From Stegostoma tigrinum (taxonomy: Eukaryota): a stretch of 64,000 nucleotides of DNA. Shown here piece after piece: positions 1 through 25,629 of the stretch. The stretch's first letter is position 1, and each line of letters starts with the position of its first letter. Made by a program: the position numbers and the translations under genes. The notes under the pieces were generated by a model, which worked only from the letters and a program-made list of their open reading frames with translations, did no database searches and had not been told where the DNA came from. The DNA is taken from assembly GCF_030684315.1 (NCBI RefSeq), contig NC_081396.1, positions 4,774,001 through 4,838,000 of the forward strand, in the 5' to 3' direction.

Positions 1-77
1 GTTCGACAGAGCAGTCTACACATGCCAGGTCGAACATGAAGGGCACAGTCAAAGTCACAACATCACCGGACCTCAGG
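1..77 (+). CDS. IgNAR: IgNAR constant domain C3, 3' end of exon (partial)
   Basis: Translates FDRAVYTCQVEHEGHSQSHNITGPQ, with the C1-set YxCxVxH motif, and ends at a phase-1 donor CAGG|GTAAGA. Resembles the end of shark IgNAR C3. Confidence 0.9.
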
Positions 78-399
78 GTAAGAGATGCATTCCGACAGAA
101 ATGATACTAATTGTGACCGCTGATGCAAAACAAAACACTTAATTTATCAAGCGGTGTGAAAAGCATGAAACAAGTTCGAATTGAGATCATGCAGTGTGTA
201 ACTCAATTCATTGTGAGTTTTACGGAAGCATTGTTCATAATTCAAATCAGAGAAAGGTGCTTCCCTCTATATTGACAACATATGAGAGTTTACGAGATTC
301 ATTTGTTGTTTGACAATACTTGGAGAGGGAGTGGAAATGCAGAATCCATTGCTGGTAACGGCCTCAAGGATAAGGAGATTGTGGGGAGGGGAGCCATCG

Positions 400-765
400 A
401 GAAGTGATCTCATTGAAACTTAGGAAACACTGACAGACCGAGACAGGGTGTATGTGGAGAAGCTGTTTTCACGAATATGTTGACTAGGACCCGACGACAA
501 ACCCTCAGCCATAGGGAGGACCATATAGAGCGGAACCAAAGAGGATAATCTTTGCCCAGGAAGTGATGAATCCATGGATATCTCTACCCCAGGGAGCTGT
601 GGAGGTAAAGTCATTGAAATCATTTAAGATAGGGGTAGATTGGCTGGTGCTCAGTACCGGGAGAAGGCGGGACAATGGGTTTGAGAAACACATCAGCCAT
701 GATCGAATGACACAGCAGACTTGATTGAACCTTCTGATTCTGCTCCGAAATCTTTCGGTTTTGTG
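400..765 (+). mobile_element. Degraded CR1-type LINE 3' fragment in the C3-C4 intron
   Basis: Diverged match to the 3' end of the CR1 copies at 14.3-14.7 kb and 26.8-27.2 kb (gaagctgttt...actaggac...gctgtggagg...tcattt aag...gtagat). Confidence 0.6.
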
Positions 766-2009: not shown

Positions 2010-2315
2010 TTTCAGAGTGCCATGATTACACAGCTAAAATACTACCGCCACCAGTTGAACAGGTCTTACTGGAGGCCACGGTGACATTAACCTGCGTTGT
2101 GTCCAATCTTCATTTTGAAGCCAACTTCACCTGGATACACGACAAGAAGACTCTGAAATCAGAACTTGTTGACCAGTCCGGAGAGCATTCCGAAGGTGTG
2201 ATCAGCAATTTAGATATTTCTACTGAAGCCTGGCTGAGTGGGGATACATTTGAATGCGTAGTGAACAATCAGTATCTACCGACTCCACTGAGAGACTCCA
2301 TCCACAAGGAGAAAT
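2010..2315 (+). CDS. IgNAR: IgNAR C4 exon
   Basis: Acceptor ttgtag|, open frame (V)[32 protein letters not shown]...W...[28 protein letters not shown], phase-1 donor AAAT|[22 protein letters not shown] is characteristic of IgNAR C4. Confidence 0.95.
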
Positions 2316-2767
2316 GTGAGTTAAGAAATGAATGCACAAAGCATTTATAATTTAGATCCAGTTTCATCGATGGTCTGTATTGATTGGTATTAACGTAGCT
2401 CCCTTGATGGCATTGATGATACATTTCCTGACAAGAAAGATAAATAAAGAATGAGGGAAAAATAAAAACTCGATTAACGGATATTCTGTCGTGATTATAT
2501 TAAAAATGGGAAGCGAACTGGAGTTTTGTGATATAAACTCCAGTAATGACAAATGTATAAAATTTCCGAGTTCTGGGCTAATGGCATGCAGATGACATTT
2601 GAACTTTTTTTTGTAATGAATAGAACGGATACTATTCTGCTCCTTTTCAAAAAATGAAAGTGAATAAATCCCAAATTAAACATGGAATCGATGAATATTG
2701 GGTAAAATTCCAATCCTGTTTCCTAAAGATTTAAACGTAATTCCTTTTTTGTTCAAACATTTTGTAG

Positions 2768-3159
2768 TAATAAATCCTCTGGAGCCATCGGTGTCGATCC
2801 TCCTGCCAACGACAGAAGAAGTCTCCGCACAGAGATTTCTTTCCCTCACCTGTTTAGTGAGAGGCTTCAGGCCGCGAGAGATCTTTGTCAAGTGGACAAC
2901 AAATGACAAGCCAATTAATCCCAGTAACTACAAGAACACCGCGGTGACGGCAGAGAGCGACAACACTTCATTCTTTTTGTACAGCCTATTAACAATTGCA
3001 GCGGAGGAGTGGGCCAGCGGTGCTTCTTACTCCTGTGTGGTGGGACATGAAGCGATTCCATTGAAGATCATCAACAGAACGGTTGATAAAACCAGCGGTA
3101 AACCGAGTTTTGTGAATATTTCGCTTGCACTGATGGACCCCATCAATTCATGCCAATGA
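2768..3159 (+). CDS. IgNAR: IgNAR C5 exon plus secretory tailpiece
   Basis: Acceptor tttgtag|; [13 protein letters not shown]...[16 protein letters not shown]...[51 protein letters not shown]. The tailpiece has the NxS glycan site and a penultimate Cys. An internal donor AGCG|GTAAAC after 3097 serves the membrane form. Confidence 0.97.
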
Positions 3160-3185
3160 AATTTTGAGGTTACAGTAAAGAATTA

Positions 3186-3200
3186 AATAAAAGTAATAAA
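3186..3200 (+). promoter_or_regulatory. Tandem AATAAA polyadenylation signals of secreted IgNAR mRNA
   Basis: AATAAA at 3186-3191 and 3195-3200, 27-41 nt after the secretory stop, followed by a GT/T-rich tract. Confidence 0.85.
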
Positions 3201-4329
3201 GTGTTTTCTTTCATCAAATTGTCATTTAAATAGACAATCGTTTAATTTATGGTATTTCCCACTTTTCATAATATTCCGCCCTTCCAGTAAAAGTCGATAG
3301 TTAGCAAGACTCGGACTCGTGTCTTGTGCAGTTAATGCTCCTTGCTCAGACCAGTCCTTGGTCAGTGACAGACAAAAGCTCAATCATTACACGATTCGGC
3401 AAAGCACCTTCCCCATCTTAAATGTTACTGCGACAAAATTTGACAAAGTCTATTCCATCACAAATGAGCATCACGGATTTTGATCTTGGTTTCCCTGATT
3501 CCACAATCGCCCATGTCTTGAAAATTCATGCCAGCTTTTAAATGCCCCATTGTACCCGCTTGGAGTATACCCTTTCGTGGCATTTCAAACAATGTTTGAT
3601 TGTGGCACACCAAGAAGGAAGTATTGCTTTGGTTCCCAATCATATTGAGTTCAGAGTAACTTGAATTTCTCCTTTTATCGGTGCTATGCCAGGGATCTCA
3701 CACCAGTGCATCAGTTAACAGAATGCATTTTCAAGTCCATACCAAACAGAAGAGAAAGAAATGTCGTTATGTCGAACATCGGGAGAAGCGGGTAGAATGA
3801 TTAATGGATGATATGCGGACTCCTCTTGCCTAGAGTTCTCGTTATATGCCCTCTGTAATGTGATTTGTAGATGACAGGAATCGTCAGCTCATTGCTTACT
3901 GGCCAGTGATTCAAATTTTCCATGCAATATAATTCATTTGAAGCGTATTCTATTCCCTTGATCCCGTTAATCATCTGTTAACATTGTTTCTGCGTCATCC
4001 AAACCAAACTGGCATTGTTCCAGTTTATTTTCAACAGTTCTGACTCAAATTCCTGGAACCCGTGGGATCAGTTCTGGGATACAAACACGGGACATCATTA
4101 TCTTTCACTTGCTGTGGACATATTTTACATACAATTTTCTCAGAAATGTAATTCTCCATCTCTAGAATGGTCGGAATTTGATCTGATGAATTTCATTTCA
4201 GAGACAGAAATTCTGTCTTTGCTACAAAAGTTATTCACGTAGCGCTTATCTGTTCACAACAGTGACAAATGTTCCCTTCACCATCAGGGGCAGAGCTAAT
4301 CATTGGCAATTGATGATAGTTACAAAACA

Positions 4330-5600
4330 GTAAAAAAAACACAGTCCGGTAGAAGAGCAGAAACAAACACAAATGCTCACAAACGCTCTCACGACACAGA
4401 TATACAAGCTCTCACCAAAAGGGGCGTAATTATGTACAAACATAACTACGCATACACATAAGTTGTCACACATACATACATATAGAAAGGCATATTTCAA
4501 TTTAATGTATAAGCTGTCACATAAACTCTGACAAAAAGACAAGTGCATTGAAAGCAACACACCCAAATAAACATGGTTCACCATGAAAAATCATGAAAAA
4601 CATAGACACAAATTAGCACACAAATGCTCTTTAATGCATATCCATTTATAACCATGATACGCACAGATATGCATGTGTAAACACACACATACAATATCCA
4701 AGATGTATCCTCCCATGTAGCCACTCACACACACAGACATATGAGTGCAGAGACAAACTTTAATTTCATCATTATCCCACTTGCAGAAATATAGACATCT
4801 GAGGGAAGAGGCAGCTTAGTTACTTATTTTACAAAACACTTTAATGAACACAACAGGACGGCCACGCATGAACACAATTTCTGAGTCTCACAGGCAGACA
4901 CGGAAGTGCATTGATCAATGCACGGTGGGGTATTTGCAATAAAGGTGAAAAGCACAATATCAAGAAACATTCACACCTAATAGCACAAAAAAATCATATC
5001 AGGAGATGGTTTAGAATGCATTGACATGCAAATAATAACATCACATAAATATAAACATTAATCAATACATGAAGTTACATACGAACATAACATGTTTATG
5101 GAGCACAAACATGAAAATAATTTCAATCTGGCAGACTCTACAATCGATACATAAACACACATTTTCAATAGCACGATACAAAAAAACCACAACGTCATTA
5201 AAAATATGGTAGGTATCAAAAAATGAAGTAGCATATTAACATAGTGTTGATTACACGTTGTGAAATGAATACAATTTACCGACAAAAGCACAAAGATGTT
5301 AATGAGCATACCGGCACCCAAGCAACATGAATATGCTTGCCCATGCATAATCTCCAAAGAGAATACGTGTGAAGGAAGAGACACTGATAACCACATACCC
5401 AAACAATAAAGGGAAAAAAAATACACACCAAGCTGCAGACAGAAAGATAACTAAGGGAGAGTTCACAAAATAAAAAAAACTTAGCGTGGACAGATAATGC
5501 AAACAAATATATGAAACAATGATCGTACTCTAGATCCAATTTATATTCATGATTTGTCGAGCAATTAATAACACATAAAAATGAAAGATCAGTAGTCACA
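4330..5600. repeat. Degenerate CA/A-rich low-complexity tract in the secretory-to-TM intron
   Basis: Strong A/C excess on the + strand with many ACACA/CATA runs. The Cys/Val/Phe-rich minus-strand ORFs here are compositional artefacts. Confidence 0.6.
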
Positions 5601-5986
5601 TTTGAACTCATATTCACTGATGAGCACAATTTTCAACTGAACAGCTGCCACTGCCTATATTGGAAATGCAATGCTATAATTAATATAATCGTTCCTAATC
5701 AGTGAAATGACAACAGAGATTATATTCTCCATTAATATTTTAAATAATGAAATGCGTCAAAATGTTCAGACATGGCTAAGAATGGAAGAACATGTCCAAA
5801 TGGTTTTCGCAAGTCATTGCTGGCAAGAAATAACACTACAATAGGTGGAGATCAAAAGTCAAATTTGAGAATTACCTGAGAGCTTGAAGAAGGTGTAACA
5901 GTTCCCAATGACAATATTTGGAGAAAGATATATCAGACTGGATCAATGAACAACCTCAACTCGTTGTCTTGCCTTTATATTCATAG

Positions 5987-6114
5987 ACTCAAGAGATCAT
6001 AATTGGATTGAAGACTCTGAGGATGATAACGGCAACATGTGGACAACTGCTTCTACATTCATTACCTTGTTCTTCCTGAGCATTTTCTACAGTGCTGCTG
6101 TCACACTGGTCAAG
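5987..6114 (+). CDS. IgNAR: IgNAR transmembrane exon (TM1)
   Basis: Acceptor tcatag|; (D)SRDHNWIEDSEDDNGNMWTTASTFITLFFLSIFYSAAVTLVK; donor AAG|GTAAGA. Acidic spacer plus the conserved antigen-receptor TM motif WTTASTFIxLFxLSxFYSxxVTL. Phase 1 matches the C5 internal donor. Confidence 0.95.
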
Positions 6115-6253
6115 GTAAGACAAATGAAATCATTCGCACCTCAAACAGGCCATTGTGCTTTGTGAAATCTGGTTGTGTGTCAATAAATTAAATTTAAAAC
6201 CTGAATGCCCTGAGCATAAATATTTACATCTTTACCTTATCACTCTTTTTCAG

Positions 6254-6262
6254 GTCACGTGA
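6254..6262 (+). CDS. IgNAR: IgNAR cytoplasmic exon (TM2): GTC ACG TGA = V-T-stop
   Basis: Strong acceptor ctctttttcag| after a 139-nt intron from TM1; phase 0; gives tail K-V-T. Confidence 0.85.
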   Translation, partial: VT

Positions 6263-6749
6263 ATGAATTTTGCACCCTGTAGAATTTCCTCATCTGTTCA
6301 TCCAGGCCACTGAACTGCAAATGTACCATCAGTCATGTTGTTGAAAGTAGCAGTGACATAAATTCAGTTTATGAGTCTGTAAATGAGAAAATCATTGTTG
6401 GGTTTTCAATTTCCCTTGCTTGATAACGTCAAGACAATTAGTGTTCAATAATTTGTAGCTTCCGAATAGGTGAAGTCAATTTGTGTTGTTGTTGTTGCTA
6501 TTCCTTATTCAGAATTGTTGTTCGTCTTTTATGTTGCGCCTGTATTTTTTTTTCTGATGACTGTCACTGATGAGAATGAAATTCAGAGCTCAGATGGTAT
6601 GTGTCATTGACTGAATGTGGCATCAAATCATTATGTTCACTTTTGGTAATTTTAACACAAATATTTCAACAAAAATGCTGTCTGAATCAGGAAATATACC
6701 GAGACTGAATATGTACAAACCTTGAGTTTGCTTTATTCTTTCTTCAAAG

Positions 6750-7216
6750 GCCATCAGGAATGACAGTTGAACAATGGTCGTGATTTTTATAATGACTGGG
6801 CAAATAGGTGTGACCTGTGTGCATAACAGGATGCAACAATGGACTGTTTGCGCTGAAATCAATCTGCCTCTGGATTATGCCATAAGACAGATCGAGAGAA
6901 AAATGGGTTTACATTCATGGGCTGCAAGATGGAGAAGCTGAAGATGGAGAATTTTCCCAAGTTTTAACGTCCCGCCCCGATTCCAGTCAAATGCTTCAGG
7001 GTTATATCTGATTGTGTTTCCTGTCATCATTAGGTTCAAGTTTCTCCATCTTGTGGCCCATTTTTCACTCGATCTGTCGAATGACAAAATCCAGATACAG
7101 AATGATGACAGCACAAGCAGGCCATTGTTGTATCCTGTTATGCACACAGGTCACACCCGTTTGTCCAGGCATCATAAAAATCACAGCCGTTGTTCTATTG
7201 CGAACCTGCTGAAGGC
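6750..7216. repeat. Imperfect inverted repeat (arms ~6750-6947 and ~7035-7216)
   Basis: 6807-6832 (ggtgtgacctgtgtgcataacaggat) is the exact reverse complement of 7132-7157, and similarity extends over ~180 nt. ORFs 6623..6862(-) and 7012..7212(+) share HCCILLCTQVTP. Confidence 0.92.
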
Positions 7217-7410
7217 AGGCAATGGAGTTAGGAAGTTTACTCTGTTCTGACTAAAAGCACAAAACCTCCAGGATCGGTAGACCTTGAGTTACTCACAGAT
7301 AAATTTCCACCTAACATGCCCAATTAAACGTTCATCAGCCAGGGATATCACATTCAGTCGCGAATACAGACTCATTGAGACCTGTCAGACCCATGACAGA
7401 ATTCGGTACC

Positions 7411-7416
7411 AATAAA
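7411..7416 (+). promoter_or_regulatory. Candidate poly(A) signal for membrane IgNAR mRNA
   Basis: First AATAAA I find downstream of the TM2 stop (an ATTAAA lies at 7323-7328). Confidence 0.45.
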
Positions 7417-8339
7417 ATGAACCATTCTCAGCATCTGAAACCTGTCCATTCTGGACACACTGAAGCTTCCTCTGCTAGTCAGATTTTATTTATTCTGGGG
7501 GCTACTCAAGTCATATGAATCCCTTGTGATAACAGCTGTTTCAAAACACCAACCAATTAAAATGATCCTTGGCCAAATCTGATAAATTGGTCAGCCTGGA
7601 GCACCAAAAAACTACGTACATATGTCAGGTATTTTCTTTATTTTCTCAATTTACCATTTAATACTTAAACGTGAATGTTATACCTCAACAAGAGACTGAT
7701 GATCAACTTAAATGCATGCAACCATTACACATGTGAAAATTCACAAAATTAAAATGAATTGCACGCTAAATTAAATTGGGCACACACGGAGAATCTTCCA
7801 AAGTATTGGAGCAAGAGTCGCATTCTTTCACCACTGCTGGAATTCTTCAACGGGCAAAGTGTCTGAAAGAAACACACAGGCAGATTTACAGTGTGGAAAT
7901 CTAAACGACAACAGAAATTGATAGTGTACAAGACATTACGTTCATACTGACTATAGAGGCAGTGCTGTTAAATGTGCGAGATGCTCAGACAAATTTCTGT
8001 GCCTACTCTGTGACAGACACCGAAATTAATCTCGATCCATCACAACATTTCTTTCGAAGCATCTCGCCAGGGTCGTATTTTTTGGAATGTCCCGAATAAT
8101 CCCGAGGTCACAGCACAGTTTACAGGAAATTTAATCGATTGAACCACTCGCTACTTTAAAATGAGCTTCATTTTATCTAATTTTGAGTTGTTTCAATTGT
8201 CAATTATATTTGACCAGCGTCTGAAAGTTTTCAAATCCTTCCTCAGTGGAAGTAATTTCTCACTATCCAATTCTACTAAAACCATCAGGATTTTAAGAAA
8301 ATCAGCCATATTGAAAATTGCTGTTCAACAGAGGAGAAC

Positions 8340-8482
8340 AGTCCTGACTTTGCAATATCGGTGAGGTGCATCATCCGAGGAAACGTGCTGTGATATTGAC
8401 ATGCCGCTGTCTCCAGACTTCGTATTCATCAAAAAAAAATGTCCTCTGAAACTGGACGCAGTTTTCCAGGTGAGCTGAGCGA
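8340..8482 (-). pseudogene. V-set Ig domain relic (D-F strands)
   Basis: Within ORF 8325..8651: SFRGHFFLMNTKSGDSGMSISQHVSSDDAPHRYCKVRT, resembling V-set FRGR....xxGDxSxxIxxVxxxDxxxYxCxV; Asp sits 6 residues before Cys. Confidence 0.45.
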
Positions 8483-8559
8483 CTGTTTTATTTAAGTTTA
8501 TCGTAATTCTTTTCACTTTTACCTCCAACAGTATTAATGAAGAAATGTATTTTCTGCAC

Positions 8560-9030
8560 TTCCCCCCACATGTCATGGCACATTCCTTGATTTGTGCACA
8601 TAGCCAGGGAGGATCCTCAGCAGATCGGATGGCTGGGAGACTCTTTCCCACACGCTGAATGTTGAATGGCTTCTCCCCAGTATCAGATCACTGCTGTGTA
8701 ATGAATTTACAAGACTGCCTGAATATCCTTCCACAGGTATGGCAGCAGAATTGTTTCTCTTCATTATGAGATGGAACGTATGACAGGGGGATGATGGGCT
8801 TAAAAAAATTCCTTCCCACACATGAAGCTAGTCAATGACTACACCCACATAGAGCTGTGCTGATGTTTTCCCAGAAAGGAAAGAATTGAATTCTGCAGTG
8901 CCCACATATCCATGGATATTCTGTGGTGCTGGTCTCCTTATGAATGTGGTCATGCTTTGTAAGCCTGGGTGGATAATTAAATACTCTGCCACAATTCTGA
9001 CATCGCCACAGTTTCTTCATTTTGGTCGTG
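8560..9030 (-). pseudogene. C2H2 zinc-finger gene remnant
   Basis: KLWRCQNCGRVFNYPPRLTKHDHIH, YPWICGHC and TGEKPF...GK...SQPSDLLR fragments broken by stops and frameshifts. Confidence 0.75.
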
Positions 9031-9384
9031 TTCTCTTGTGTCTGCAGTTTGAATGATCAGTTGAAGTCTCATATACACACAGAACACTTAGTTTTGTGTC
9101 AATGTGAATATTGCACTTGTTGTAATATCACCAATTAAAACCCTTCCCATATTCAGTGAGGTTGAAAACTGTCACAAAAATGCATATGTGCCTCAGAGAA
9201 TTTGCAGTCACATTGATTTTTGAACTGTTAGAACACAGACAGGGCAGGCAAATATTTCACATATCATATTTAGAGATCAATTACAGTCAGATCCAGATAA
9301 TTCAGGCGATTGACAAATTTTAGTGCATTGTTTTGTTTGCATTTCCCATCTGAAACTTGCAACACTCTGAAATGAGTTTACCAA

Positions 9385-9598
9385 AGACAACAATATAATG
9401 CTGTGGCTGGAAGAACACAGCAGGCCAGGCAGCATCTGAGGAGCACAAAAGCTGTCGTTTCAGGCGTAGAATGAAGGATCTGGGCCCGAAACGTCAGCTT
9501 TTGGGCTCCTAAAATGCTGTTTGGCCTGCTGTGTTCATCCAGGTCCACAATTTGTTATCGCGGATTCTGCAGCAACTGCAGTTCCCATTATGTCTTGA
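9385..9598. mobile_element. Penelope-derived short palindromic (hairpin) element
   Basis: gctggaagaacacagcaggccaggcagcatc...aaaagctg / cagcttttgggctcc...ggcctgctgtgttcatccag inverted arms; same sequence as the 3' terminus of the Penelope copy at 10.9 kb. Confidence 0.8.
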
Positions 9599-10527
9599 AA
9601 TAAGACTAGTTTTTTTTCGGTTGACATCCAAACTCATTCTAATCATTTCTTTCCTCAAATCTTAGTGTTTTCCCATCATATACCATGGTGTTTTTTAATC
9701 AATTCCATCCCCTATTCCCAATTCCTCCACCTCCGTCACATCTTCTCCCAGGATGAGGCATTCCACTCCCGCACATCCCAGATGTTCACATTCTACAAGG
9801 ACGCAAAACTCCCCCCACAGTGGTCGAGAACGGCCTTGACTGCGTCTCCCGCATTTCCCGCAACACATCCCTCACACCCCGCCCCCGCCACAACCGCCGC
9901 AAGAGGATCCCCCTCGTTCTCACAGACAACGCCACCAACCTCCGGATACAACGCATCATCCTCTGGCACTTCCGTCATCTACAATCCGAACCCACCACCC
10001 AGGCCATTTTTCCATCCCCACTCTTGTCTGCCTTCCGGAGAGACCACTCTCTCCGTGACTCCCTTGTCCACCTCACACTCCCCTCCAATCCCACCACGCC
10101 CGGCACCTTCCCCTCCAACCGCAGGAAGTGCTACACTTGCCCCCACACCTCCTCCCTCACCCCCACCCCAGGCCCCAAGATGACCTTCCATATTAAGCAG
10201 ATGTTCACCTACACATCTGCTAATGTGTTATACTGTACCTATTGTACCCGGTGTGGCTTCCTCTACATTGGGGAAGCCAAGAAGAGGCTTGGGAGCCACT
10301 TTGCAGAACACCTCCGCTCATTTCTCAATAAATAACTGCACCTCCCAGTCGCGAACCATTTTAACTCCCCCTCCCATTCCTCAGACGACATGTCCACCAT
10401 GGGCCTCCTGCAGTGCCACAATGATGCCACCCGAAGGGTGCAAGAACAGCAACTCATATTCCGCTTGGGAACTCTGCAGCCCAATGGTATCAGTGTGGAC
10501 TTCACAGGCTTCAAAATCTCCCCTTCC

Positions 10528-10640
10528 CCCACTGCATCCCTAAACCAGCCCAGTTCTTCCCCTCTCCCCACTGCATCACAAAACCAGCCCAGCTCGTCCC
10601 CCCCACCCACTGCATCCCAAAACCAGCCCAGCCTGTCTCT
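10528..10640 (+). repeat. 39-bp tandem repeat x3 inside the Penelope element
   Basis: cccactgcatc...aaaccagcccag units start at 10528, 10567 and 10606. Confidence 0.9.
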
Positions 10641-10880
10641 GCTACCCTAACCTGTTCTTCCTCTCACCCACCCCTTCCTCCCACGTCAGGCCGCACCTCA
10701 ATTTCCTACCTACTACCACATCCTGACTCCTTGACCTGTCCGTCTTCACCAGATTGACCGACCTGTCGCCTCCCTACCTCCCTACCTGTACTCTCCTCTC
10801 CACCTATCTTCTTTTCTCTCCATCTTCGGTCCGCCTCCCCCTCTCTCCCTATTTATTCCAGAACCCTCTACCCATCCCCC

Positions 10881-10914
10881 TCTCTGATGAAGGGTCTAGG
10901 CCCGAAACGTCAGC
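10881..10914 (+). ncRNA. Minimal type-I hammerhead ribozyme motif in Penelope pLTR
   Basis: CTGATGA-agggtctaggccc-GAAAC-GTC: both conserved core boxes, a stem II hairpin and the palindromic ACGT stem III typical of PLE hammerheads. Stem I is only ~2 bp. Confidence 0.65.
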
Positions 10915-13039
10915 TTTTCTGCTCCTGAGATGCTGCTTGGCCTGCTGTGCTCATCCAGTTCCACACTTTGTTACTATGGTTTCAGTTCCCCAGCTTGTGG
11001 ACACACGGAAAAGTAACTCAATAAGCAAATGATTTTCTTGTCAGTTGACTGACATCTGAATTGTCTCTTCTCCAGCTCTACAAACGGACACATTCAAATG
11101 GCTCAATTTACAGAATTTTTTTTTTGTCTGTATGCCCCTCTCACTCCCTGTTCCTATTTTCACAGCACATAGTCTAAACTCAGAGTCAGTGTCTCAGATT
11201 GCTGTTAGGAAACTCTCACTGTTGCACCAGCTGTCACAAAGTCATCATGCTGTCAGGGAAATGACATTTGACGTTGTTCTCAAACAAGATAGCTGCCAGT
11301 TAGCCCCGTGGGCGATACCCGTGACCTGAGACCCACTTATTCTGGTGCATTCGCCTCAAATAAGTGTTTTCAGTCCTACTTTCTTTGACAGCGGAATCTT
11401 GTCATTCAGGCCCACCGAGCTCGCCGGGATATTACTGAAACTTCCCGCTCACCTGATAATGTCATTCCTCCCCAAAATTCGGACGCATGATCTGCAACCC
11501 GCTGCGCATAGTCCAGGTCACTGTGGGGCTTGGATGATGGATGGCAGCACCATGCCAAGACGAAAACCACAGAGGGAAGAGGGCTGAGAGTCAGAGGCTC
11601 TTTTGAACCCAATCGTGTGCATGAAGGGTGAAGCTCAGTCTGTGTATCGTTCATTGATTGCAATTTTGCCTCATTTGGAGACCTAATTTGCCTGACACTC
11701 CACGATAAAATTGGATCTTTCTGTTGGTGGATTTAGAAAGATGAATGCTGGTAGGGATGAAGCTAGCATTTCGACAAATGTTATTAAAATGAGGGAACAC
11801 AGCGGAATAATTTACGAAGAATTGGATTGCTGCCTAAAAGAAATAAGCACACAGATAACAGTGTTACATCATTCCAACAGAAATCAAAAATTCAGAAGCA
11901 AAAATTGGACAAACTGTCGTGTCAGCGAGCTGCAGACACAAGATCGATGAAGTGGGGATTTTCGTTCTGATTTCAAGTGCTGCGGACCAAAGAGCTTTTG
12001 CGCAATTAGTTTTACCTTAATTAGCACTGATATATTTTATCAGTGTAAACTTGTTGAAAACAATTAAAACAATTGATGTTTTGTGCGTTGTCACTGATAG
12101 AATATAAAGGGAGTGTTTTTCCATCTAGTTTAACTTTCCAGCAGAGGAGTGGAGTGGCATAATCTTCAAACGTCAGATCTGAAGAACATGGTTTAATGGT
12201 TTAGACCTGCTCACTTTAACAATGCGGGCATGAATAGATTTTTTTTCAAATTAAAACGAAAATAAACGAACTGGGATTCTACTTATCTGTCAGAAATAAT
12301 CCATTAACAAACTTCCCAGCACAGCGGAGAGACCATTCAGTGCTGTGCTGTATTTGAGACATTGCGAAATGGAACACAGTCAGTGCCAGTCGAGGAAAAA
12401 TAATTGATAAGGTGAATAAGAATTAAATCGTTAATACCAGTGTTTAACTTTGCACGAGTGCTGACTGTGCCAGCTACAGAATGTATACTATGAGAAGTGA
12501 ATATTTTATTGTCGACATCAACTAATGGAACAAGCTGCCGTTGTATGTTGTTTGTCTATTTCAACGCCAAATGGTCGTGATCATTGGTAAAATCAATTAT
12601 TGAACGGTCAGATAGAAACATGGAGGTCAATTATATCCAAATCATCACACCACCTCCCCCGCCACACCCCAACCAACAGTCCAAAATCAAGAGAGACATA
12701 TATCATTTTGAACAAAAATAGAGTACAATGTCAATCTCACATTCAACATGTTATTGGAAAAAGCGATCACAGATGATTAGTGCAATTTAACACACTGTTC
12801 TTCTATTATCTCTGCTATATCTTTTTGTCTGAATTCAATAAAATGATTCTTTTCTTTTCTTTGTTCTCTGGTCGTGTTTCATCGCTTTCGAAATTGCCAT
12901 GCCGTCAGTGAACAGTTAATGCCAAATTGAAATATTTGAAATTTCTCTCTTACAAGCTGCTGTTAATGTCAGTCCGGAAACTGTGTTAAATTTCTATAAT
13001 ATTGAGCCATTCGTTGTTCACTTCAGATCGCAGATTATG

Positions 13040-13270
13040 TGCAACAGTCATTATCCATTCAACATCCTGGCTTAGAAATATATCACCATCCTTCATTGTT
13101 GTAGGGTTTTAATCCTGGAAATCTCTCTTGAATGGCATTGAGGGACGAACTGCAACATTTGTCCACCAGCTGTCAAAGAAGGCAGATAGCACCATCATCC
13201 AAAGGTGCAATGAGAGACAGGCAATAGATGCTGACTCTGCCAGCTGCATCCACCTTCCAAGAATTCATTG
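13040..13270 (+). mobile_element. 3' tail of a non-LTR retroelement (diverged; related copies at ~32250-32400 - and ~36620-36880 +)
   Basis: tcctggaa...caaagaaggcag...caccatc...caaagg...ggcaatagatgctg motif shared among the copies. Confidence 0.55.
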
Positions 13271-13321
13271 AAAAAAATAAATAATCAATGATGACAGAGA
13301 ATGGACAGAAGTTGCGCAGAA

Positions 13322-14705
13322 AAATAGGGAAATGCCTGGCAATTACAGACCAGTAAGTCTCACGTCTGTCGTCTGCAAGGTGTTAGAAAGAATTCTGAGG
13401 GATAGCATTTATGACCATCTGGAAGAGCATGCCTTGATTAAATGCAGTCAACACGGCTTTGTGAGGGGCAGGTTATGCCTCACAAACCTTATCGAGTTCT
13501 TTCAGGATGTGACTAGAAAGGTTGATGAGGGTCGAGCTGTGGATGTGGTGTATATGGACTTCAGTAAGGCATTTGATAAGTTTCCCCATGGTAGGCTCAT
13601 TCAGAAGGTCAGGAGGAATGAGATACAGGGGAACTTAGCTGTCTGGATACAGGACTGGATGACCAACAGAAGGCAGCGAGTGGTAGTAGAAGGAAAATAT
13701 TCTGCCTGGAAGTCAGTGGTGAGTGGGGTTCCACAGGGCTCTGTCCTTGGGCCTCTGCTGTATGTAATTTTTATTAATGACTTGGATGAGGGCATTGAAG
13801 GATGGGTCAGCAAGATTGCAGACGACACAAATGTTGGACATGTCGTTGACAGTATAGAGGGCTGTTGTAGGCTGCAGCGGGACATTGACAGGATGCAGAG
13901 ATGGGCTTAGAGGTGGCAGATGGAGTTCAACCTGGATCAGTGCGAGGTGATGCATTTTGGAAGGTCGAATTTGAAAGCTGAGTACAGGATTAAGGATAGG
14001 ATTCTTGGCAGTGTGGAGGAACAGAGGGATCTTGATGTGCAGATACACAAATCCCTTAAAATGGCCACCCAAGTGGACAGGGTTGTTAAGAACGCATATG
14101 GTGTTTTGGCTTTCATTAACAGGGGGATTGAGTTTAAGAGTCGTGAGATCTTGTTGCAGCTCTATAAAACTTTGGTTAGACCGCACTTGGAATACTGCAT
14201 CCAGTTCTGGTCGCCCTATTATAGGAAAGATGTAGATGCTTTGGAGAGGTTTCAGATAGGTTTACCAGGATGCTGCCTGGACTGGAGGACTTATCTTATG
14301 AAGAGAGATTGACTGAGCTCGGACTTTTTTCATTGGAGAAAAGGAGGAGGAGAGGGGACCGAATTGAGGTATACAAGATAATGACAGGCATAGATAGAGA
14401 TGATAGCCAGAGACTATTTCCCAGGGCAGAAACGGCTACCACGAAGGGTCATAGTTTTAAGCTGGTTGGGGGAAAGTATAGAGGGGATGTCAGAGGCAGG
14501 TTCTTTACACAGAGAGTTGTGAGAGTATGGAATGCGTTGCCAGCTGCAGTTGTGGAAGCAAGGTCATTGGGGTCATTTAAGAGACTACTGGACATGCATA
14601 TGGTCACAGAAATTTGAGGGTGCATACATGAGGATCAATGGTCGGCACAACATCGTGGGCTGAAGGGCCGGTTCTGTGCTGTACTGTTCTATGTTCGATG
14701 TTCTA
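13322..14705 (+). mobile_element. CR1 LINE, 5'-truncated reverse transcriptase and 3' UTR, relatively young
   Basis: PGNYRPVSLTSVVCKVLE, QHGF, YMDFSKAFDK, GVPQGSVLGPLL, ADDT, LYKTLVRPHLEYC; few stops or frameshifts; ttctatgttc tandem tail. Confidence 0.97.
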
Positions 14706-17049
14706 AAACGAAATTTTGGCAGAATCATCAGGACTCTAGGGATATGTCTCATTTGGATCAGTGACGAGTGGGGAGACAGGGAAAGTGTCATTCCCACAGT
14801 GACGGGATGTTTGAATAGTTACCATCATGGAGTTTAAGAGCACTGAATTAACTGTCATATGCATTGGAGCCACAGTTGTGAATACTGGTTTCGGAGCATT
14901 GTGATATGTTTATTTAATATGGAAAACAGAGATAATGTGAGTGAGTAAAGCTGGAAGAAGAACAATCGTCTTGTCGAATCAGAGAGCTGTAAGACGTCGA
15001 TTTGCAAGTAAATAATTTTGTCTGTTTTCCGATTATAGAGGTAGAGAGGGAAAAACATTAAAACGTATGAATAGAGGGACAGATACAAAAAAACAAGACA
15101 GGGACGAAGTGAGAGAGAGAGAGGAACAGTACTTAATTTATTTCCTCAATAGTAGATGAGATGAATTTGTTCAGAAATTTTGAAACCTTCAGGAAGTTAA
15201 AGTTCTGCTGTGGCAGAGACTGATATTAATGCATCAAAAACATTCAGATTAGAAAGACTTAACATTCCAGAATTTAACAGAGCAGAACAGAAAATATGGA
15301 AGAAGTATGTGGTCATTTCGGACTTCGAGACGGATCTTCCATTCCATAATGGTCCAAAATGAAACTTTCCAACAATTTTCATTTGCCTCAGTGATATTGC
15401 AGTCAACTACAGTGACCCGTCGAAATTGGAAAAAAAATACTTTGCAAAGTATAAACGTTTCCACTTTCAATCTACAGAATGTTAGAGCACAAAAGGAGAT
15501 CACTGTGCCTGTTGTACCTTCGCCAGGTCCCGATAAGAATGAATGAGCTACCTCTATCGCCCACTGAAATCATCACTTTCAAAAGTATCCCCATTTCTCT
15601 TTCTTATTGAACCTCCAAAGGAATCTGACTCCCCGAAACACTCACGACAGCATATTCCAAATCTTAACAACTCTCTGAGTTAAAAAAACCCTCGTTCTCA
15701 TGCTGACAATTTTGCAACTATGAGCCATGATTGCTCAACTACTCTCCTCAGAGTTTGAGAGCAATGCATCTGTCAACGTATTTTCTCTATTCAGTAATTC
15801 ATTTGGGCAAAAAAACCGATGAACATGTGTTTCTTTTTTTGTAATGTAGCTGCTTAAAGTTCTATATCATTTGATTCTGAAAACTCGTGGCCATTTCTAT
15901 TCGAATCGCAAAGGAGGAGAAGAGCTTTTTTTTAAGCGGAATCAGAAGCGTTTTTTTCCTTTCACTCACTCTCTTTTCCTCATAATTTTTGCACTTCCTC
16001 ACTTTGTCTATTTCTCTCCGTCTCTTTCTGGGTGTCAAATGTTCTCTTTCAGAAAACTGTATTAATCCTTGCAGGGATTGTACTGCCGATTCATGTCTTA
16101 CAGAATTTTGCTGCCCCTGTCATCCTCAGTATTTATAATTGCTTTCTTTTATCCTGTTTTTTTTTCCGGACATTACTGAATGTTGTATGATTAAAGGTGT
16201 CTTTCAGCATCGGTTGACCTATTACTTTTGATGCAATTGCAGGCTAGAAACTGGCGTTTTCAAATTCCAGTGAAACCAGGACTGAAATGCACTCTTCATG
16301 AATCGATTTACTCCCAAAACGGTTATAATCCAATCAGTGACAATTTGTACATGCAGTCTGCACAACTTGTTTCATTGTGAATATTCGGCTCAAAACAGTC
16401 TTGCTAATCTGTACATTTTACAGATTTAACCGTAAGAAACAATCTGATGCCAGACATATTGAAGATAATCTGCTCCGAACTCTTTATGTTCTCTGCCCTT
16501 CTCCTTCAGAGTTACAGTTGATTGCATGCGATAGCAACTCACTTTTATTTGACAAGACCAGAGGACATCATGTCAGCAACTGTCTTTGGACAGTGCTCAG
16601 GGAATGAGAATGCATTCTTTCTCCAAGCACGAAAAAGCTGTTGCAGTTTGCTGAAATAAACCAGAATAAGCATGCATTTCAATTTAGATTAAGAAAACAA
16701 AGCGTTTTAGATGAGGAAGTCTTTTTTTTAATTGCCTTCCTCTGCACTTCTCCGAAGCGTTGAGCATGCATTTCCTACGCTTGTTCAATAATTTCATTCA
16801 AACAATCAGATTTAGGACGAAATGCTTTAATATATGTTAAGAGTTGGAGCAGAGCGTACAATGTCAGCCGCCTTCATGCCATCATTTAGCAACATAATTG
16901 CTAATATATTTATGTTTCAAGTTCCACAAACTCATTTACTAGTAACAGCTTTTGTTTTGTGTCACTTAGATTTACTAAAGACTTTTGCATGGGTTTCAGA
17001 GTGATCTTGCCATTTGCGTACGTAGTTAGCTTAATTGCAGAAAATGGAA

Positions 17050-18097
17050 TAAATGGGAGATGTTTTATTTCGGACTCGAGGTTTGTGAATGGCAGTGTTC
17101 CACAGCGGTTGGTTTCGGGTCTTCTTCTGGTTGTCATTTATATAAATGATTTGTATGAGAAATATAGGAGGCACAGTTGGTAAGTTTGTGGATGACATCA
17201 AATTTGTTGTTTTTGTGGATTGTGAAGAAGACTTTCGAATATCACAAAGGGAGCTTGGTCAAATGGATCAATGAGCTGAAAATGACAGATAGATTTCAGT
17301 CCATATGTATGTGAGGAATCGTGTTTCGTTAAAGCAAACAAGGACATAGCTTATACAATTAATGGTCGGACAATACAGGGGAGAAATCTCAATATAGGGA
17401 AGAAAGCATGGAAATAGACCCCCCGGCCCAACCAATCCAGTGACGAGGCACGTAATTCGTGAAAGTTTGTGTCACATGCACAGGATAGTTTAAAAAGGCG
17501 TTTGGCACACTTGCCTTCATTATTTAATCCTTTGAACATAGGGTTTGAGATGTTGTACAGGACATTGGTGAGCCCCCTTCTTGAAAAGGGTCTCCAGTTC
17601 TCGTCACCCAGTGATAAGAGGATGTTATGAAGCTGGCGAGGCTTCAGAAAAGATTTATCAGGATGTTGCCGGGTGTAGATTTTTTAAATTATTATTCTTC
17701 ACTGGAGCAGACGAGGTTGAAAGGTGCCATGATAGAAGCTCATAAGATAATGAGAGGCATAGGCAGAGTCTTTGGCAGTTCTCTTTTCCAAAAGAATTGG
17801 AATTTTGAGACGTGGCAGCACATTTTCAAAGTGAGACGGGAGATCTTCAAAAAACCGAAGCTTTTTTCATACATGAGCTTGTTCTCATGTGGAATGAAAT
17901 TCCAGATAAAGTGGTGAATGAGGATACAATTACAACGCTTAAAATACATTTGGATGGGAATGAAAACAAGAAAGTTTCGAAGAGATATGGTCCAGGAGCA
18001 GGAAGGTGGGACTCGTTCAGCTTAAAATTATTTATGACATGGATTGGCTGGGCTGGAGGGTCTATTTCCATGCTTTATGGCTTTACTAATCTATGAG
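17050..18097 (+). mobile_element. Degraded CR1 LINE RT/3' end
   Basis: VPQRLVSGLLLVVIYINDL, VDDIK, LQKRFIRMLPG, WNEIPDKVV fragments. Confidence 0.85.
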
Positions 18098-20309
18098 TCG
18101 CCAGAGCACAAAAACATCTGCCTACCTACTTCTTTAAGCATTTAATGTTCCTTATTCCACTGTCTTCTGAATCAATGTTCCAAACGTGAAAAACTACCTT
18201 GCCTCACTGCTGCAGCAATAGCTGCCAATTTGAAAACCATTATCCATATTTGTGGATTGATGAAGCAGACAAAATGTGTTTTCTGTGCAACCCTTATCAA
18301 GAGCATTCTGAAATGTGCAAACTTTAATCAAGTCACTGCTCATTTGTATCAGCTTCAATCCAACCTATCTTGCTCAGACACTCCACTTTGTTAAGGTCAA
18401 AATCTCTCCTGAAGCATTTATACTTACATCCTATGTTAAAGCTGAAAGCAAAGCTCCGCATAGTTTGTGTGTCATAGCATCATCAATGCCCTCTGGAATT
18501 AAAGCACGTCATTGTTACCTTTATGTTCAACTCACCTGGCAACAAAAATTAGCATCTCATTTGTCTTCTTGACAGCTATCTGTGCCAGAATACTAACTGT
18601 TTATGATTCGTGCACATGAACAATTAAATTCTTCTAAAACTACGCATTTTGCAGTTGTTCTCCGTTTTGTAACTTCCGGGTGTTTTCAAATCTTATATTG
18701 TTGCACATTTTGCTGTTGTCTGCAAACTGAACTACAATGCCTCCGTCCAACTCACCAACGTCATTTATTCACATTTTCAATATTTGAGCATCCAACAAAG
18801 TCAGATGCAGCTCGTCACATCATTCCAACTGGGAATAAAATGCCCCTTGATGATATGCTCTATTTTCCCCCGTCAACCAATCTTGTATTCAACATAGTAT
18901 CTATTCTCAACTGCAAAAGCTTTAATATGATTTACCACGAAATACTTGCCAATAACCTCTGAATGTCGAAGTGCAGTAGCCTTTAGGTTTTCCTTTTCTT
19001 CACTATTCATGTTGTTTCTTCATGAAGTCCAACAAATTGGTTAAACATCATGTCCCCTTGAAGAAGCCACGTTGAATCTTCCCAAGCACTACGGATATTG
19101 TCCAAGTGTTCAGTAAGAACAAAATGGAGAAATGCAGGTGCTGGACATCTGAATCAGATTCAAAGATTAAAGGAGAAACTTAGCATGCCTGGCTGAATTT
19201 GTGGGGAGAAAGCAGAATTAACAATTCAAGTCAAGTGACTCTTCAGAAAACTGAGCTTTGAGAAAGAATAAATAGACTGGAATTTTTAACACCGCTTTCC
19301 ACCAACAAATTCACAAAAACAGTGTCAAACTTATTGTTATTGATGTTGTCAGGACATCAGATTAAGACCTGCTTAATTTTCAGTAAGTGATATCAAATTG
19401 TAGTCAGTTCAAACTGTCAACATTTTTCTTCTGGATGAAATGTAGATTTTAGAGGTGCAGACATATTATTTGAATGCTTTAGCAGCAGCGTTGTTTGTTC
19501 TGTCTGTGTAATGGGTAATTTCCATGGTTAGTTCGGCATTTGTAGTTTAAAAGAGTGTTTAATGGGTCGAGGAATAAATTTGCAAAACATAATCAAGCGT
19601 TTGACAAATATTGGAGCTGGATTGCAGCACACTTGGCAATGTGTATAATTCTGGTCTCCTTTCTTCAGAAAATGCAGGAATGTAAAGCACAACATCAGAA
19701 AGGTTTTGCAGGTGTGACCAGAATTGAGAGATTATAACCCACAGAAAGAAATATGTAGACTTGTGTTCCTTTCTCTACTAATGAGAAGACTAACAGTTAA
19801 CTAGACTGATGTCTTTACAATGGTAATAAGATCTTATGTTGCGGACACAGAGGAGAACGTTGCACTTGAGGAAGATACCAGAACTATAAATTTTTAAAAA
19901 CCAGTGGCACACAACACTCGAATGAAGATTTCAGTGGAAAAATTGTTTCGCCTTAGAACAGGAAAAATATTAATCTTAATGCAACACTGATGATTTGAAT
20001 TGAAGAACAAAGATGTGTTTTAAAGCAAACCATGTAAACAGTGGAGGGAGACAATGATGGAAGTTTTTGCGAGTAAAATTGAGGAAGAAGTAGGAAGGAT
20101 GTTTGTGGTCATTTCAGACACAGGCATGAGCCACTTGATACAAACGAACTTTGTCTGTTCTAACTTCCACCTATTTTGGATAACATCAAGAATTTCTGAA
20201 TTGACTTTACTTTGCTCGAACGTTTAAGTCACTGAATTTGGCTGCGTTCACCTTGTGATCCACAGCTGAGTGATATGGTTTCTGTAGATCTGTAGGATTC
20301 CTTGTTCAT

Positions 20310-20680
20310 ACAGATGGAGCTGTGCCACTGACGATGGTTATTATTTGTTCTGATACCAACAGTACCTCAGCAGACAGCCCGAGTTCGCAGTCTGAATGTT
20401 CAAGTGCTGCGATACTGAAACGAAATGGCTTTCATGAAAATCCGCTTTTCTTATGTCGTCCAGCACTCGGACAAGTTATAACAATTGACAGTCCCACAGC
20501 ACCTGTTGTCTGACTCCACAGTCTATGACTGTTTAATAAGTGTGACCATGATTGGACTGAGTGAAAGCCTTGTACATTAGCCAGCTGAGGTTTCTGGGTC
20601 ATATCTACTGCCTGTTGATGGCGACAATAACCACAGGCCATACGCTGAAGATGCAGCAGATGATCGTGAGGGAAAAGTCC
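20310..20680 (-). pseudogene. Relic of a germline-joined V-J type IgSF domain with adjacent hydrophobic leader-like stretch
   Basis: One frame with one internal stop: AVDMTQKPQLANVQGFHSVQSWSHLLNSHRLWSQ...GRHKKSGFS*KPFRFSIAALEHSDCELGLSAEVLLVSEQIITIVSGTAPSV. Both expected Cys codons are one substitution from Cys (TGG, TCT), and IVSGTAPSV is three substitutions from FGSGTALSV. Confidence 0.45.
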
Positions 20681-21600
20681 CTGAAGACAACTCAGACAAA
20701 GAGCATTTAAAGTTGGACACAATGAATATCAATTCTTATTATTACATTGGAAACGAGGAGTGAAATGGTTGTTGTTTGTTTCGGAATCTTTCCAAACTTT
20801 CCTTTCATTTTGGTTGAGAAATCAGACTCTGCAACCTGGCCATCACGAGCTGTAACCAGGTAGCACAGATTTTTGAGGGTGAAAACATTAATTTCGATGC
20901 GAAATTCCAGAAAGTCTCATGGACAATAGACTGCCAGGTGAAGGAATTTCCAATAACTGCAGTAACCTGATTAAACAACGCTCAAAGTTAAGGGTGCACA
21001 TGGTAAAGACACTGAATTTATTGCATAACAAGGTAAAATAGACAAGTTTTCAGTATATGACGCGATGATAATGTTCAATGATATAAATGGTGATAATCTT
21101 AAAGGATTAGCTTGGGAGTTCCTTCGAAAACCTCGTCAGAAAACCGACTAAATATTAAAATCTATCGGAGGGCTTTTACAAATCTGAATTTTAAGTATTT
21201 GCTTTATTTAAGTGTTACTCATCCCACACCGCTGTCTTGTTTCAGTCAAAATGAACGACTGGAAGACAATGCCCACAGATATTTTGGAAGCCAGTCTTTC
21301 TGAAAAGATTAATTTGTAATTTGGCATAAATTTCCTCATCAGATGTTTGAATGATGTTTGCAATGCACCGACATAAATGGAGCAAATGCAACCTTCTTCA
21401 ATCAGCACCTATTAATCTCTGTTGTTGAATGTTCGATTTTATCTCAATTCAGACCTTAACAAGAAAACGTTCAAGAAGTCCTGGTTTCTGTACAGGTCAC
21501 ACGGCCTGTGCATGTCCCACTGTCCACTCCACTTACTTTCTTTTCCCAATGACAAAATGTTTTCTTTCGTCCAAGATTTCTCTGGGTCCTGCAACAGTAT

Positions 21601-22004
21601 ATCTCAGTCAACAGAAATACACAACGCTGTCAGACCGCTGCAGCTCACTCATAGTGGAACTGTCCAGAAATAGCAAAAATCAAGCAACAATGTCAACATT
21701 CTGACAACATTCCCATATTTCGGGATGTAGAATCTTAAGTCTGGCGACATTCCGGAGTCCTGAAGGTACAATTGCAAGTAATATGTACAGCCTCTTGTCA
21801 AACAAATGAAATAAATCGCTAGTGCATTACCTTAAAACTGTACCACTGCAACTGGCTCCAGTGAAATCGAATCTGCACAATTAATGCCGACAGAAATATC
21901 GAAAGAAAATGTCATTAAAATGACTATGATACCCAATGTAACCACATGATGGCTTACATTGACATATGGAGAAAGAAAACCAAAGTGAAGATTGCAATAG
22001 CCAT
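21601..22004 (-). pseudogene. TCR V alpha/delta-like pseudosegment (leader-like exon 21958-22004, V exon 21601-21887)
   Basis: Leader-like MAIAIFTLVFFLHMS followed by GTAAG and a 70-nt intron with a mutated acceptor; then GINCADSISLEPVAVVQF*GNALAIYFICLTRGCTYYLQLYLQDSGMSPDLRFYIPKYG.../..MSELQRSDSVVYFC*LR; degenerate heptamer TACTGTT. Confidence 0.7.
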
Positions 22005-22684
22005 ACTACCAAGATATATGCAATTTAAATCACCATAACTTGCAAGTCACGAGAGTTACAGGAGTGAGGAAAGAGCAAATCTCAAGAGCCAACATGTTTG
22101 CAGAATGTATGGTTGGTTTCAAAAATAAATCTAATTGAATTTAAATTGTTTCAGCAAAGAGTCAACAATGTGTCTTATCACGTCTCTGTACCCATTGGGT
22201 TAGTTTCGGGCCGAGTCACCATGTTTCAAACCATCAGCTTTTATCTTCCCTCTTCTCCAACCAATGACATCAAAGTGCTGGTCAGTTGAACTCCGCGTGG
22301 GAGCTTGAGGAGATCGCTTGACCCATCAAACCGACTCGAACATGAATAAACTCGTGTTTGACCGAATTCAATTCAGGCAGAATCATTGTATCATTTCAAT
22401 GTTTCAAGATTCATTCATCTGTCAACAGTGGCTTAAAATATAATCAAAGCCACGGCAATAAGCACTTTCTGAACCCAATAAAGCCGAAAGGAGCATTTTT
22501 TGTCTTCAACGGAGATAAGTTGTATACATCAGTTCGTGATTAATGTTGTTGTTGGACCTCCTCCATTAGGTGCAATGCTCACTGATCATGTGCAATTCGC
22601 ACAGCAATGTGCTGAAGTGCCAATGTGAGACCCTATTGTAAACTGTCCTCAACAGACAGCAGCTGGGACACAGAGACCTGAAAT

Positions 22685-22723
22685 AGTTATTGTACGATGG
22701 TTTAACTCATTCCCATCACAGTG
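22685..22723 (-). promoter_or_regulatory. Recombination signal sequence, 23-bp spacer
   Basis: Minus strand directly after YYCVIWS: CACTGTG + atgggaatgagttaaaccatcgt (23 nt) + ACAATAACT (7/9 to ACAAAAACC). Confidence 0.88.
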
Positions 22724-23177
22724 AGACCAGATTACACAGTAATAGTCAGTGGTGACATCAGCATCTCCGAGATGTTCAATTGATACAATCTGTTTATCGG
22801 TTGGAGGGTATCAGAAAAGCATGCCTCAGAGAAATCTGCCCTAACTTCAGCAGAAGGTCCTGAGTGTCTCCAGACTTTAAATTCAGGCTGTCTGCCTGGG
22901 TACGGACGGCGCCAGTTTAAGGAATCAGCATAATCAGAGTCGGTGCAGTTTCAAGTGACATCTTCTCCATCTGTCTTTGTGGTTGTTGAGTAACAGAAGC
23001 TCCATCGCTCAGTCCTGGAACACAACGTTATAGAAAGACAGTGATTAAATATTACATTGAACTGAATTGCAGGTGGGAGTACACGGCACTACGAAAACAA
23101 ACTGGGGATTGAAAGGAGAAAAAAGCCCATTACGTGCACCAGGCCTGTGTCGGGGTGAGTATTACAACTACAAACAT
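22724..23177 (-). pseudogene. TCR V alpha/delta-like pseudosegment (V exon 22724-23014, possible leader 23134-23177)
   Basis: Acceptor gtgttccag|; GLSDGASVTQQPQ/TDGEDVT*NCTDSDYADSLNWRRPYPGRQPEFKVWRHSGPSAEVRADFSEACFSDTLQPINRLYQLNISEMLMS/TDYYCVIWS then a 23-RSS. Both Cys and the Trp are retained; two frameshifts and a stop. Confidence 0.85.
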
Positions 23178-25499: not shown

Positions 25500-25629
25500 N
25501 NNNNNNNNNNNNNNNNNNNNNNNNNNNNNNNNNNNNNNNNNNNNNNNNNNNNNNNNNNNNNNNNNNNNNNNNNNNNNNNNNNNNNNNNNNNNNNNNNNNN
25601 NNNNNNNNNNNNNNNNNNNNNNNNNNNNN
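25500..25629. other. Assembly gap (N run)
   Basis: 130 consecutive N. Confidence 1.

Follow-up and report, generated by a model that had tools for sequence, protein, structure and literature searches.

In elasmobranchs, the IgM, IgW and IgNAR clusters are in linkage with the genes of TCR alpha/delta in an antigen receptor complex (AgRC), and some TCR alpha/delta-type V exons are found between the IgH clusters (Flajnik et al. 2025, PMC12227049). According to Table S1 of that work, compiled from the gene models of four species, the white shark has TCR V, pseudo-V and NARTCR V segments between its IgM genes, and in the catshark and the stingray TCR V segments adjoin IgM. Joins of IgM-V and IgW-V segments to TCR-delta are also known (PMC12227049, PMC5931798, PMC6795676). 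The shark IgM minicluster is described as having one V, two D and one J segment per cluster (PMC1845163), and the IgNAR cluster as having three D segments and five C exons (PMC8692893). The supporting V of NAR-TCR is defined by a CDR1 cysteine and the lack of a leader (PMC1845163).

The window analyzed here, i.e., the whole 64-kb stretch G000:C55:4774001-4838000 (base 1 is contig position 4774001), and its surroundings resemble the AgRC in the linkage of IgM, IgW and IgNAR to TCR alpha/delta and in the presence of TCR V segments among IgH clusters, but differ in that V pseudogenes are co-amplified as a fixed part of an IgM unit and share lesions, neither of which is reported in the available portions of PMC12227049. 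With the shark IgM minicluster (nurse shark mu chain P0005, P0006) the locus shares a VH with a 23-RSS, a first D with 12/22 and a second D with 12/12 signals, a JH with a 23-RSS, four C domains, a secretory tail and a TM region; the difference is that here the clusters form a tandem array with 18 C3+C4 sites and that TCR V remnants lie in the spacers read. The linkage of TCR V segments to IgH clusters was already published for other elasmobranchs in 2025, and what is new here is a matter of detail, namely the co-amplified dead V segments and the fully nested layout. No account of TCR V pseudogenes co-amplified with IgM units was found in the literature searched, which was largely without subscription journals. 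The nurse shark locus papers (Deiss 2019, Ott 2021) reportedly may cover such co-amplified pseudogenes.

The immunoglobulin cluster

The original prediction assigned the C exons of the window to IgNAR. This assignment was wrong: the constant region is that of IgM, and not of IgNAR. On the plus strand, the window opens with the 3′ end of the C-mu 2 exon (1-77; the whole exon is 69% identical to nurse shark P0005), followed by the C-mu 3 exon (2010-2315, 81% to P0005), the C-mu 4 exon with the secretory tail (2768-3159; 95% to nurse shark P0005, 92-94% to mu chain P0006 and 39% to C5 of the animal's own IgNAR), the transmembrane (TM) exon (5987-6114; 67% to P0009, a horn shark membrane-form C region) and a second membrane (cytoplasmic) exon with a stop (6254-6262), which was read from the sequence. 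The C-mu exons, the secretory tail and the TM exons are collinear with the mu chains P0005 and P0006 (67-95%). Upstream of the window lie a VH at C55:4757822, two D segments, a JH and then the C1 exon at 4770735; the layout is VH-D-D-JH-C1-C2-C3-C4-TM, with four C exons in all, counting C1 and the three that reach into the window. The RSS spacers expected of an IgM cluster are 23 at VH, 12/22 and 12/12 at the two D segments and 23 at JH, and the signals found (VH-23, D1 12/22, D2 12/12, JH 23) agree with this pattern. Compared with the nurse shark heavy chain P0005, the identity was 72% in VH and 74/69/81/95% in C1-C4, and with mu chain P0006 it was 66% and 76/67/80/92%, respectively. The close match to nurse and bamboo shark would point to a carpet shark. 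When the cluster was compared with the five IgNAR C exons at 8.06 Mb of the same contig, all C pairs gave 26-38%, and the last domain 39%. In addition, the V at C55:4757822 falls in the VH clade of the tree (see below) and is not a NAR-type V, and the cluster has two D segments and four C exons, as opposed to the three and five of IgNAR.

Database matches agreed with this assignment. No IgNAR-named protein was present among the 15 matches for C1 or the 33 for C4, nor was an IgW-named protein among the matches returned for these two domains. A reading of the cluster as IgW, based on motifs, was dropped, because the named best matches of C1 and C4 are mu chains. In a PDB search with C4 mu chains were frequent among the top matches, a result that is not diagnostic. 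Four separate C exons at 0.25-0.55 Mb of the contig, 50-53% identical to IgNAR C5, are likely to be IgW. Matches on contig C54 at 14.17 and 15.19 Mb were considered as IgNAR and ruled out, since both come with a VH and a mu-like C1; these regions (C54:14.16-14.18 and 15.19-15.20 Mb) hold two divergent mu-like clusters, one with a joined VDJ. In the IgM cluster that follows the one in the window (C55:4849754-4850500), the VH runs into D-like sequence without an RSS and the J is 0.7 kb away, so that this cluster is apparently partly germline-joined.

IgNAR clusters proper do exist on C55, at 2.93-2.95 and 8.05-8.07 Mb, 1.85 and 3.26 Mb from the window, and both comprise a NAR V and five C exons. 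The one at 8.05-8.07 Mb has a VNAR, a J and five C exons. The second (C55:2930204-2948353, plus strand) looks complete and lies between the arms of the TCR V array described below, 0.7-0.9 Mb from the NAR-type V at 2.04 and 2.25 Mb; its NAR V and a D are seemingly joined in the germline, with a 12-RSS at the end, the J follows ~0.7 kb on, and its five C exons are 45-65% like those of the cluster at 8.06 Mb. The idea of an IgNAR cluster among TCR genes fits this cluster at 2.93-2.95 Mb, 1.85 Mb away in the same TCR V array, better than it fits the window.

The V segments and their families

The two tandem V pseudosegments that had been read on the minus strand are present with the motifs quoted for them (V1, 23014-22724; V2, 21876-21602). 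They lie ~15.3 kb past the last membrane exon, on the strand opposite to the C exons, and no N stands between the C exons and the V segments (the N runs of the window are just 25500-25629 and 57111-57242), which bears out the predicted distance, inversion and lack of an assembly gap. Two further features of the window, V3 and V4, had been missed.

V1 (22724-23014, minus strand) is a TCR alpha/delta V pseudogene exon, ~66% identical in nucleotides to the intact gene C55:1972064 and placed in a nine-row clade with support of 100/97. Comparison with the intact paralogues shows that a 10-nt deletion near the 5′ end shifts its frame, that codon 23 is a stop and that 4 nt are missing before the YYC. 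Directly 3′ of the exon lies the 23-RSS that had been predicted for one of the segments, CACTGTG-23-ACAATAACT (22685-22723, minus strand). RSS-like matches alone are weak, the scan having returned 30 in 64 kb, and this one was taken as meaningful because it abuts the YYC and its nonamer is the same as in four of the five intact family members. Its heptamer begins with CAC in four of the six copies of V1 found on the contig and is lost in the other two, and by eye the RSS region is kept no better than the 87-93% background. Homology to the upstream region of the intact gene C55:1651494 points to a putative leader exon with a short intron at 23015-23177 (minus strand). This stretch is homologous to that of one of the three intact paralogues aligned and has no canonical phase-1 GT donor; no leader is evident within 330-520 bases upstream of two intact V1 relatives, and V1's own leader is uncertain.

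V2 (21602-21876, minus strand) is also a TCR alpha/delta V pseudogene, ~62% identical in nucleotides to the intact gene C55:2300252 (four-row clade, 99/100), and when compared with its intact paralogues it shows three stops, frameshifts and an 18-nt deletion. Its 23-RSS (21561-21599, minus strand) is decayed, with a heptamer that starts with CAC in none of the six copies. The V2 family has a leader exon, and alignment to the intact paralogues C55:5518938 and 5657738 placed a decayed leader exon and intron of V2 at 21877-22095 (minus strand), with donor and acceptor both lost. The short leader introns of the original prediction hold in part, i.e., there is upstream homology for V1 and a leader intron for V2, but the V1 donor is non-canonical and the V2 sites are decayed. 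A 12-RSS-like motif at 21510 was considered as part of a D segment and taken as chance, since no RSS was found in the homologous flank of two intact V2-family genes. The V2-family genes at C55:2300252, 5518938 and 5657738 look intact, with open frames, a leader and a 23-RSS, yet they lack the first canonical Cys and Trp.

V3 (20269-20540, plus strand) is a third TCR V pseudogene and belongs to the V1 family; it has four stops and frameshifts, groups with C55:1651494 (97/80) and ends in a degenerate RSS at ~20544-20582. Stops and frameshifts leave V1, V2 and V3 without an open frame, and all three are pseudogenes. V4 (11913-12052, minus strand) is the 3′ remnant of a very decayed TCR V, which is also present in one minus-strand IgM unit and in a seventh plus-strand unit and is collinear between the window and these other units. 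Its nhmmer E-value is 0.001 in the window and 1e-8 and 5e-6 at the orthologous places, with 0.72 as the best of the reversed control.

The family of the V segments was analyzed with a tree of 80 V domains and 101 columns, in which the outgroup labels were assigned from motifs and RSSs. The intact V were pattern picks from selected stretches of the locus, and from the 75-odd pattern matches four C domains, two non-receptor V domains and two truncated V were excluded. The supported nine-row clade holds V1 and V3, five intact V genes that lie at C55 1.65-1.97 Mb, one protein from whale shark, and P0001, and V2 falls in the supported four-row clade with the intact genes at 2.30, 5.52 and 5.66 Mb. 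The VH, the VL, the TCR beta/gamma V, the Ig-like V of the TCR region, the NAR-type V and the supporting-V clade are all separate from V1 and V2. AU tests on 30 rows, with groups set after the large tree had been inspected, rejected a grouping of either V1 or V2 with the supporting V (p 0.0005 each) and of V1 with VH (p 0.002), and weakly rejected that of V1 with NAR-type V (p 0.042). The segments are of TCR alpha/delta type, and not VNAR or VH, just as had been read from their motifs; V1 and V2 belong to conventional TCR alpha/delta V families and are not NAR-TCR supporting V. A PDB search with a V1 relative gave no diagnostic match. P0001 is a V-D-J-C-like protein whose V is an 80% identical relative of the V1 family. 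Its J matches the J at 957 kb (88%) and the start of its C matches the exon at 947 kb (57%), i.e., J-delta and C-delta (see below), and therefore the V1 family is used in delta-type chains.

Both conventional families have intact members, five V genes and a delta-type chain in the V1/V3 group and three V genes in the V2 group, whereas every copy in the window is broken. With the supporting TCR-delta V of NAR-TCR, V1 and V2 share the locus and the contig; they differ in their separate clade, in having no NAR V upstream and, in the case of V1, in lacking the CDR1 cysteine. This cysteine is absent from V1, V3 and the five intact relatives, and is present in three of the four members of the separate clade at 5.40-5.74 Mb. 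Among 16 matches to NAR-type V, none was in the window and none lay between 2.93 and 5.33 Mb.

The repeated IgM unit within the TCR alpha/delta locus

The V1-V2 pair occurs at six places on the contig, at 4.28, 4.39, 4.49, 4.60, 4.70 and 4.80 Mb, i.e., in steps of ~100 kb. All copies are on the minus strand and 86-89% identical to that of the window, and each of the six lies 20-22 kb behind a plus-strand IgM C3 exon. The spacer is common to the six units at 85-90%; in the window, the region at 16.3-24.2 kb aligns with the unit at 4.28 Mb at 88-90% and that at 16.7-23.7 kb with the unit at 4.59 Mb. Further on, at 36-39 kb, the spacer is 83-87% identical to the five sister units and 72-75% to seven minus-strand units. 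The lesions are shared as well: the frameshifting 5′ deletion of V1 was found in all six copies and the codon-23 stop in five of them. Judging from these sequences, V1 was already frameshifted and dead before the six-unit amplification. A 1.1-kb insertion splits the V1 exon just before the YYC in five copies and is absent from the window copy, which is also the most distant one (86-87% to the other five, those being 92-99.9% alike); this would fit an insertion of the element after the first duplication.

Spacers were read in parts of five plus-strand units and one minus-strand unit. V3 was present in two of the three sister units read, and the third has the end of V3 only. The minus-strand unit is collinear with positions 1-19215 of the window at 70-78%, and the homology stops just before the V3-V2-V1 block; this unit shares V4, lacks the block in the stretch read and has a V remnant of its own. 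Unit 7 (plus strand) shares V4 and has three other broken TCR V. Remnants in these three unit types suggest that TCR V segments behind IgM clusters predate the split of the unit subfamilies. Either the six-unit subfamily may have acquired the V3-V2-V1 block, or the other units may have lost it. Furthermore, C3-C4 of the window are 98% identical to those of the unit at 4.576 Mb, whereas the V flank is just 87% identical (window 1990-3200 versus 21450-22750), and therefore recent conversion or crossing-over at the C exons has mixed the units, so that a simple unit tree may mislead. Five minus-strand IgM units at C55:3430719-3898002 have an extra partial C4 copy ~15 kb downstream. The window also contains high-copy retroelement fragments at ~9400-10980 and 13280-14700, with a GIY-YIG-like frame and a LINE reverse-transcriptase-like frame, judging from their motifs.

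The C genes of TCR alpha and delta, whose position relative to the V segments had been a question of the original prediction, are on the same contig. A C-alpha candidate lies at 844.5 kb, with 70 J motifs at 848-917 kb, and C-delta lies at 947 kb, with its TM exon at 945 kb, 11 J motifs at 949-962 kb and, at 961 kb, a D flanked by a 12-RSS and a 23-RSS, all on the minus strand; the alpha and delta labels of these C and J rest on the layout and on P0001. All of these C, J and D elements are on the strand of V1 and V2, at a distance of 3.8-4.0 Mb, and the orientation of V1 and V2 towards D-delta and J-alpha is deletional. The IgM array, with 18 C3+C4 sites, extends from 2.79 to 4.87 Mb; a V-set match is found upstream of 17 of the 18 sites, and the five of these 17 that were translated are all VH. 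TCR V genes, intact ones included, flank this array at 0.97-2.30 and 5.13-5.81 Mb. The IgM cluster is inside the TCR alpha/delta V array, and not at the edge of the locus. The two alternatives offered originally, a cluster at the locus edge or co-duplicated V segments, combine here, since the cluster is surrounded by the V array and its V segments were amplified along with it; the edge itself did not stand.

NAR-type V are found on both sides, four at 1.36-2.25 Mb (three with stops) and eight at 5.33-5.78 Mb, and in the two cases read a supporting-type V follows 4-5 kb after the NAR-type V. A NAR-TCR cassette was called on this basis, i.e., a NAR-type V (top PDB matches being VNAR structures) 4-5 kb ahead of a supporting-type V. 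The eight at 5.33-5.78 Mb (plus strand) lie past the IgM array and are inverted with respect to C-delta, and their use would require an inversion of ~4.4-4.8 Mb; three of the four supporting-type V read there have the CDR1 cysteine. A pattern search found no J for the pair at 5.735 Mb. At C55:1048835-1194771, among the TCR V, there are five intact Ig-like V with a near-perfect 23-RSS that group next to VH and are presumably of the TAILV type. Beyond the IgNAR cluster at 8.05 Mb, at C55 9.10-9.18 Mb (minus strand), TCR-like V whose heptamers are unusual form a small clade.

Origin of the V remnants

The identity of the V segments and of the IgM cluster, the six-fold repeat, the shared lesions and the place inside the V array lead us to consider V1-V4, with high confidence, as non-functional TCR alpha/delta V segments carried as passengers in the tandem duplication of IgM clusters within the TCR alpha/delta V array. 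An ancestral IgM cluster would have been located among the TCR V genes of the alpha/delta locus and would then have been duplicated in tandem many times, we infer by unequal crossing-over. Each copy would have taken along the adjacent V segments in its 3′ spacer, where they would have decayed, and the V3-V2-V1 block would be the mark of one six-unit subfamily with ~100 kb per unit. The 23-RSS of V1 is plausible, and RAG might cleave it, but no resulting join would be in frame; the V segments probably do nothing productive now.

It is improbable that the V segments or the V1 RSS are kept for recombination, be it with the RSS serving as a decoy or with the TCR V being donated to IgM D1 by way of a 38-kb inversion. 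The V1 23-RSS and the 12-RSS 5′ of D1 are 38 kb apart, in a geometry that appears right for an inversional V1-D1-D2-J-C-mu join, and the CAC start of the V1 heptamer is retained in four copies out of six. However, V1 is frameshifted in 6/6 copies and its exon is split by the 1.1-kb element in 5/6, the heptamer is lost in 2/6 copies of V1 and 6/6 of V2, and by eye the RSS region is no better kept than the background. In general, TCR V placed tail to tail with IgM clusters could be, now or when intact, substrates for inversion to D1 that would give TCR-V/D/J/C-mu heavy chains, a conjecture to which we attach very little weight. With V1 dead, this idea concerns signal joints, non-productive joins and intact V in other units or species.

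The end of homology to the minus-strand IgM unit at the start of the V block would also fit an insertion or rearrangement, as if the block were a dispersed orphon brought next to IgM from outside the TCR locus. This is highly improbable, as the block is enclosed on its contig by the two arms of the TCR V array, and its flanks share only 64-75% with the flanks of the intact V loci that were read, with no recent donor seen; a rearrangement local to the locus belongs to the explanation by passenger duplication given above. The arrangement is known from one assembly, and assembly is difficult in segmental repeats; over 1.3 kb, one pair among the six copies is 99.85% identical, and short contigs of four sequencing runs (one study, at most two samples, possibly the source of the assembly) covered 30/30 bins, with no contig spanning the stretch. 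A misjoin or a falsely repeated unit has nonetheless only a slender chance of being the cause, as there is 6-14% divergence in the remaining 14 of the 15 copy pairs, the offset from C to V is found again in all six units, window 1-19215 is collinear with the minus-strand unit at 70-78%, and TCR V between IgM clusters are also listed for other sharks. Finally, the original reading, an IgNAR cluster flanked by V segments that would document how IgNAR or NAR-TCR arose, could draw on the TCR type of these segments and on a contig shared with IgNAR and NAR-type V genes, but it has practically no chance. The isotype test already refutes it (a VH, two D and four C, with a last domain 95% identical to IgM versus 39% to IgNAR), while the true IgNAR clusters are elsewhere on C55 (2.93-2.95 and 8.05-8.07 Mb) and the AU tests reject V1 and V2 with the supporting V (0.0005) and, weakly, V1 with NAR-type V (0.042).

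The IgNAR link claimed at the window is thereby removed. The cluster is IgM and the V segments are not of the supporting family, and therefore the window says nothing direct on the origin of IgNAR or NAR-TCR, contrary to what had been proposed. What is added is a map, drawn from this assembly, that places the IgM array together with one IgNAR cluster within the V array of TCR alpha/delta, with C-delta on one side and most of the NAR-TCR-type V pairs on the other. If this nested layout is true, the 'trans' joins of IgM-V to TCR-delta can be ordinary cis events, by deletion or inversion, and the distal TCR V have to bridge ~18 IgM clusters. As neutral markers, the dead V segments can in turn be used to order the expansion of the IgM clusters.
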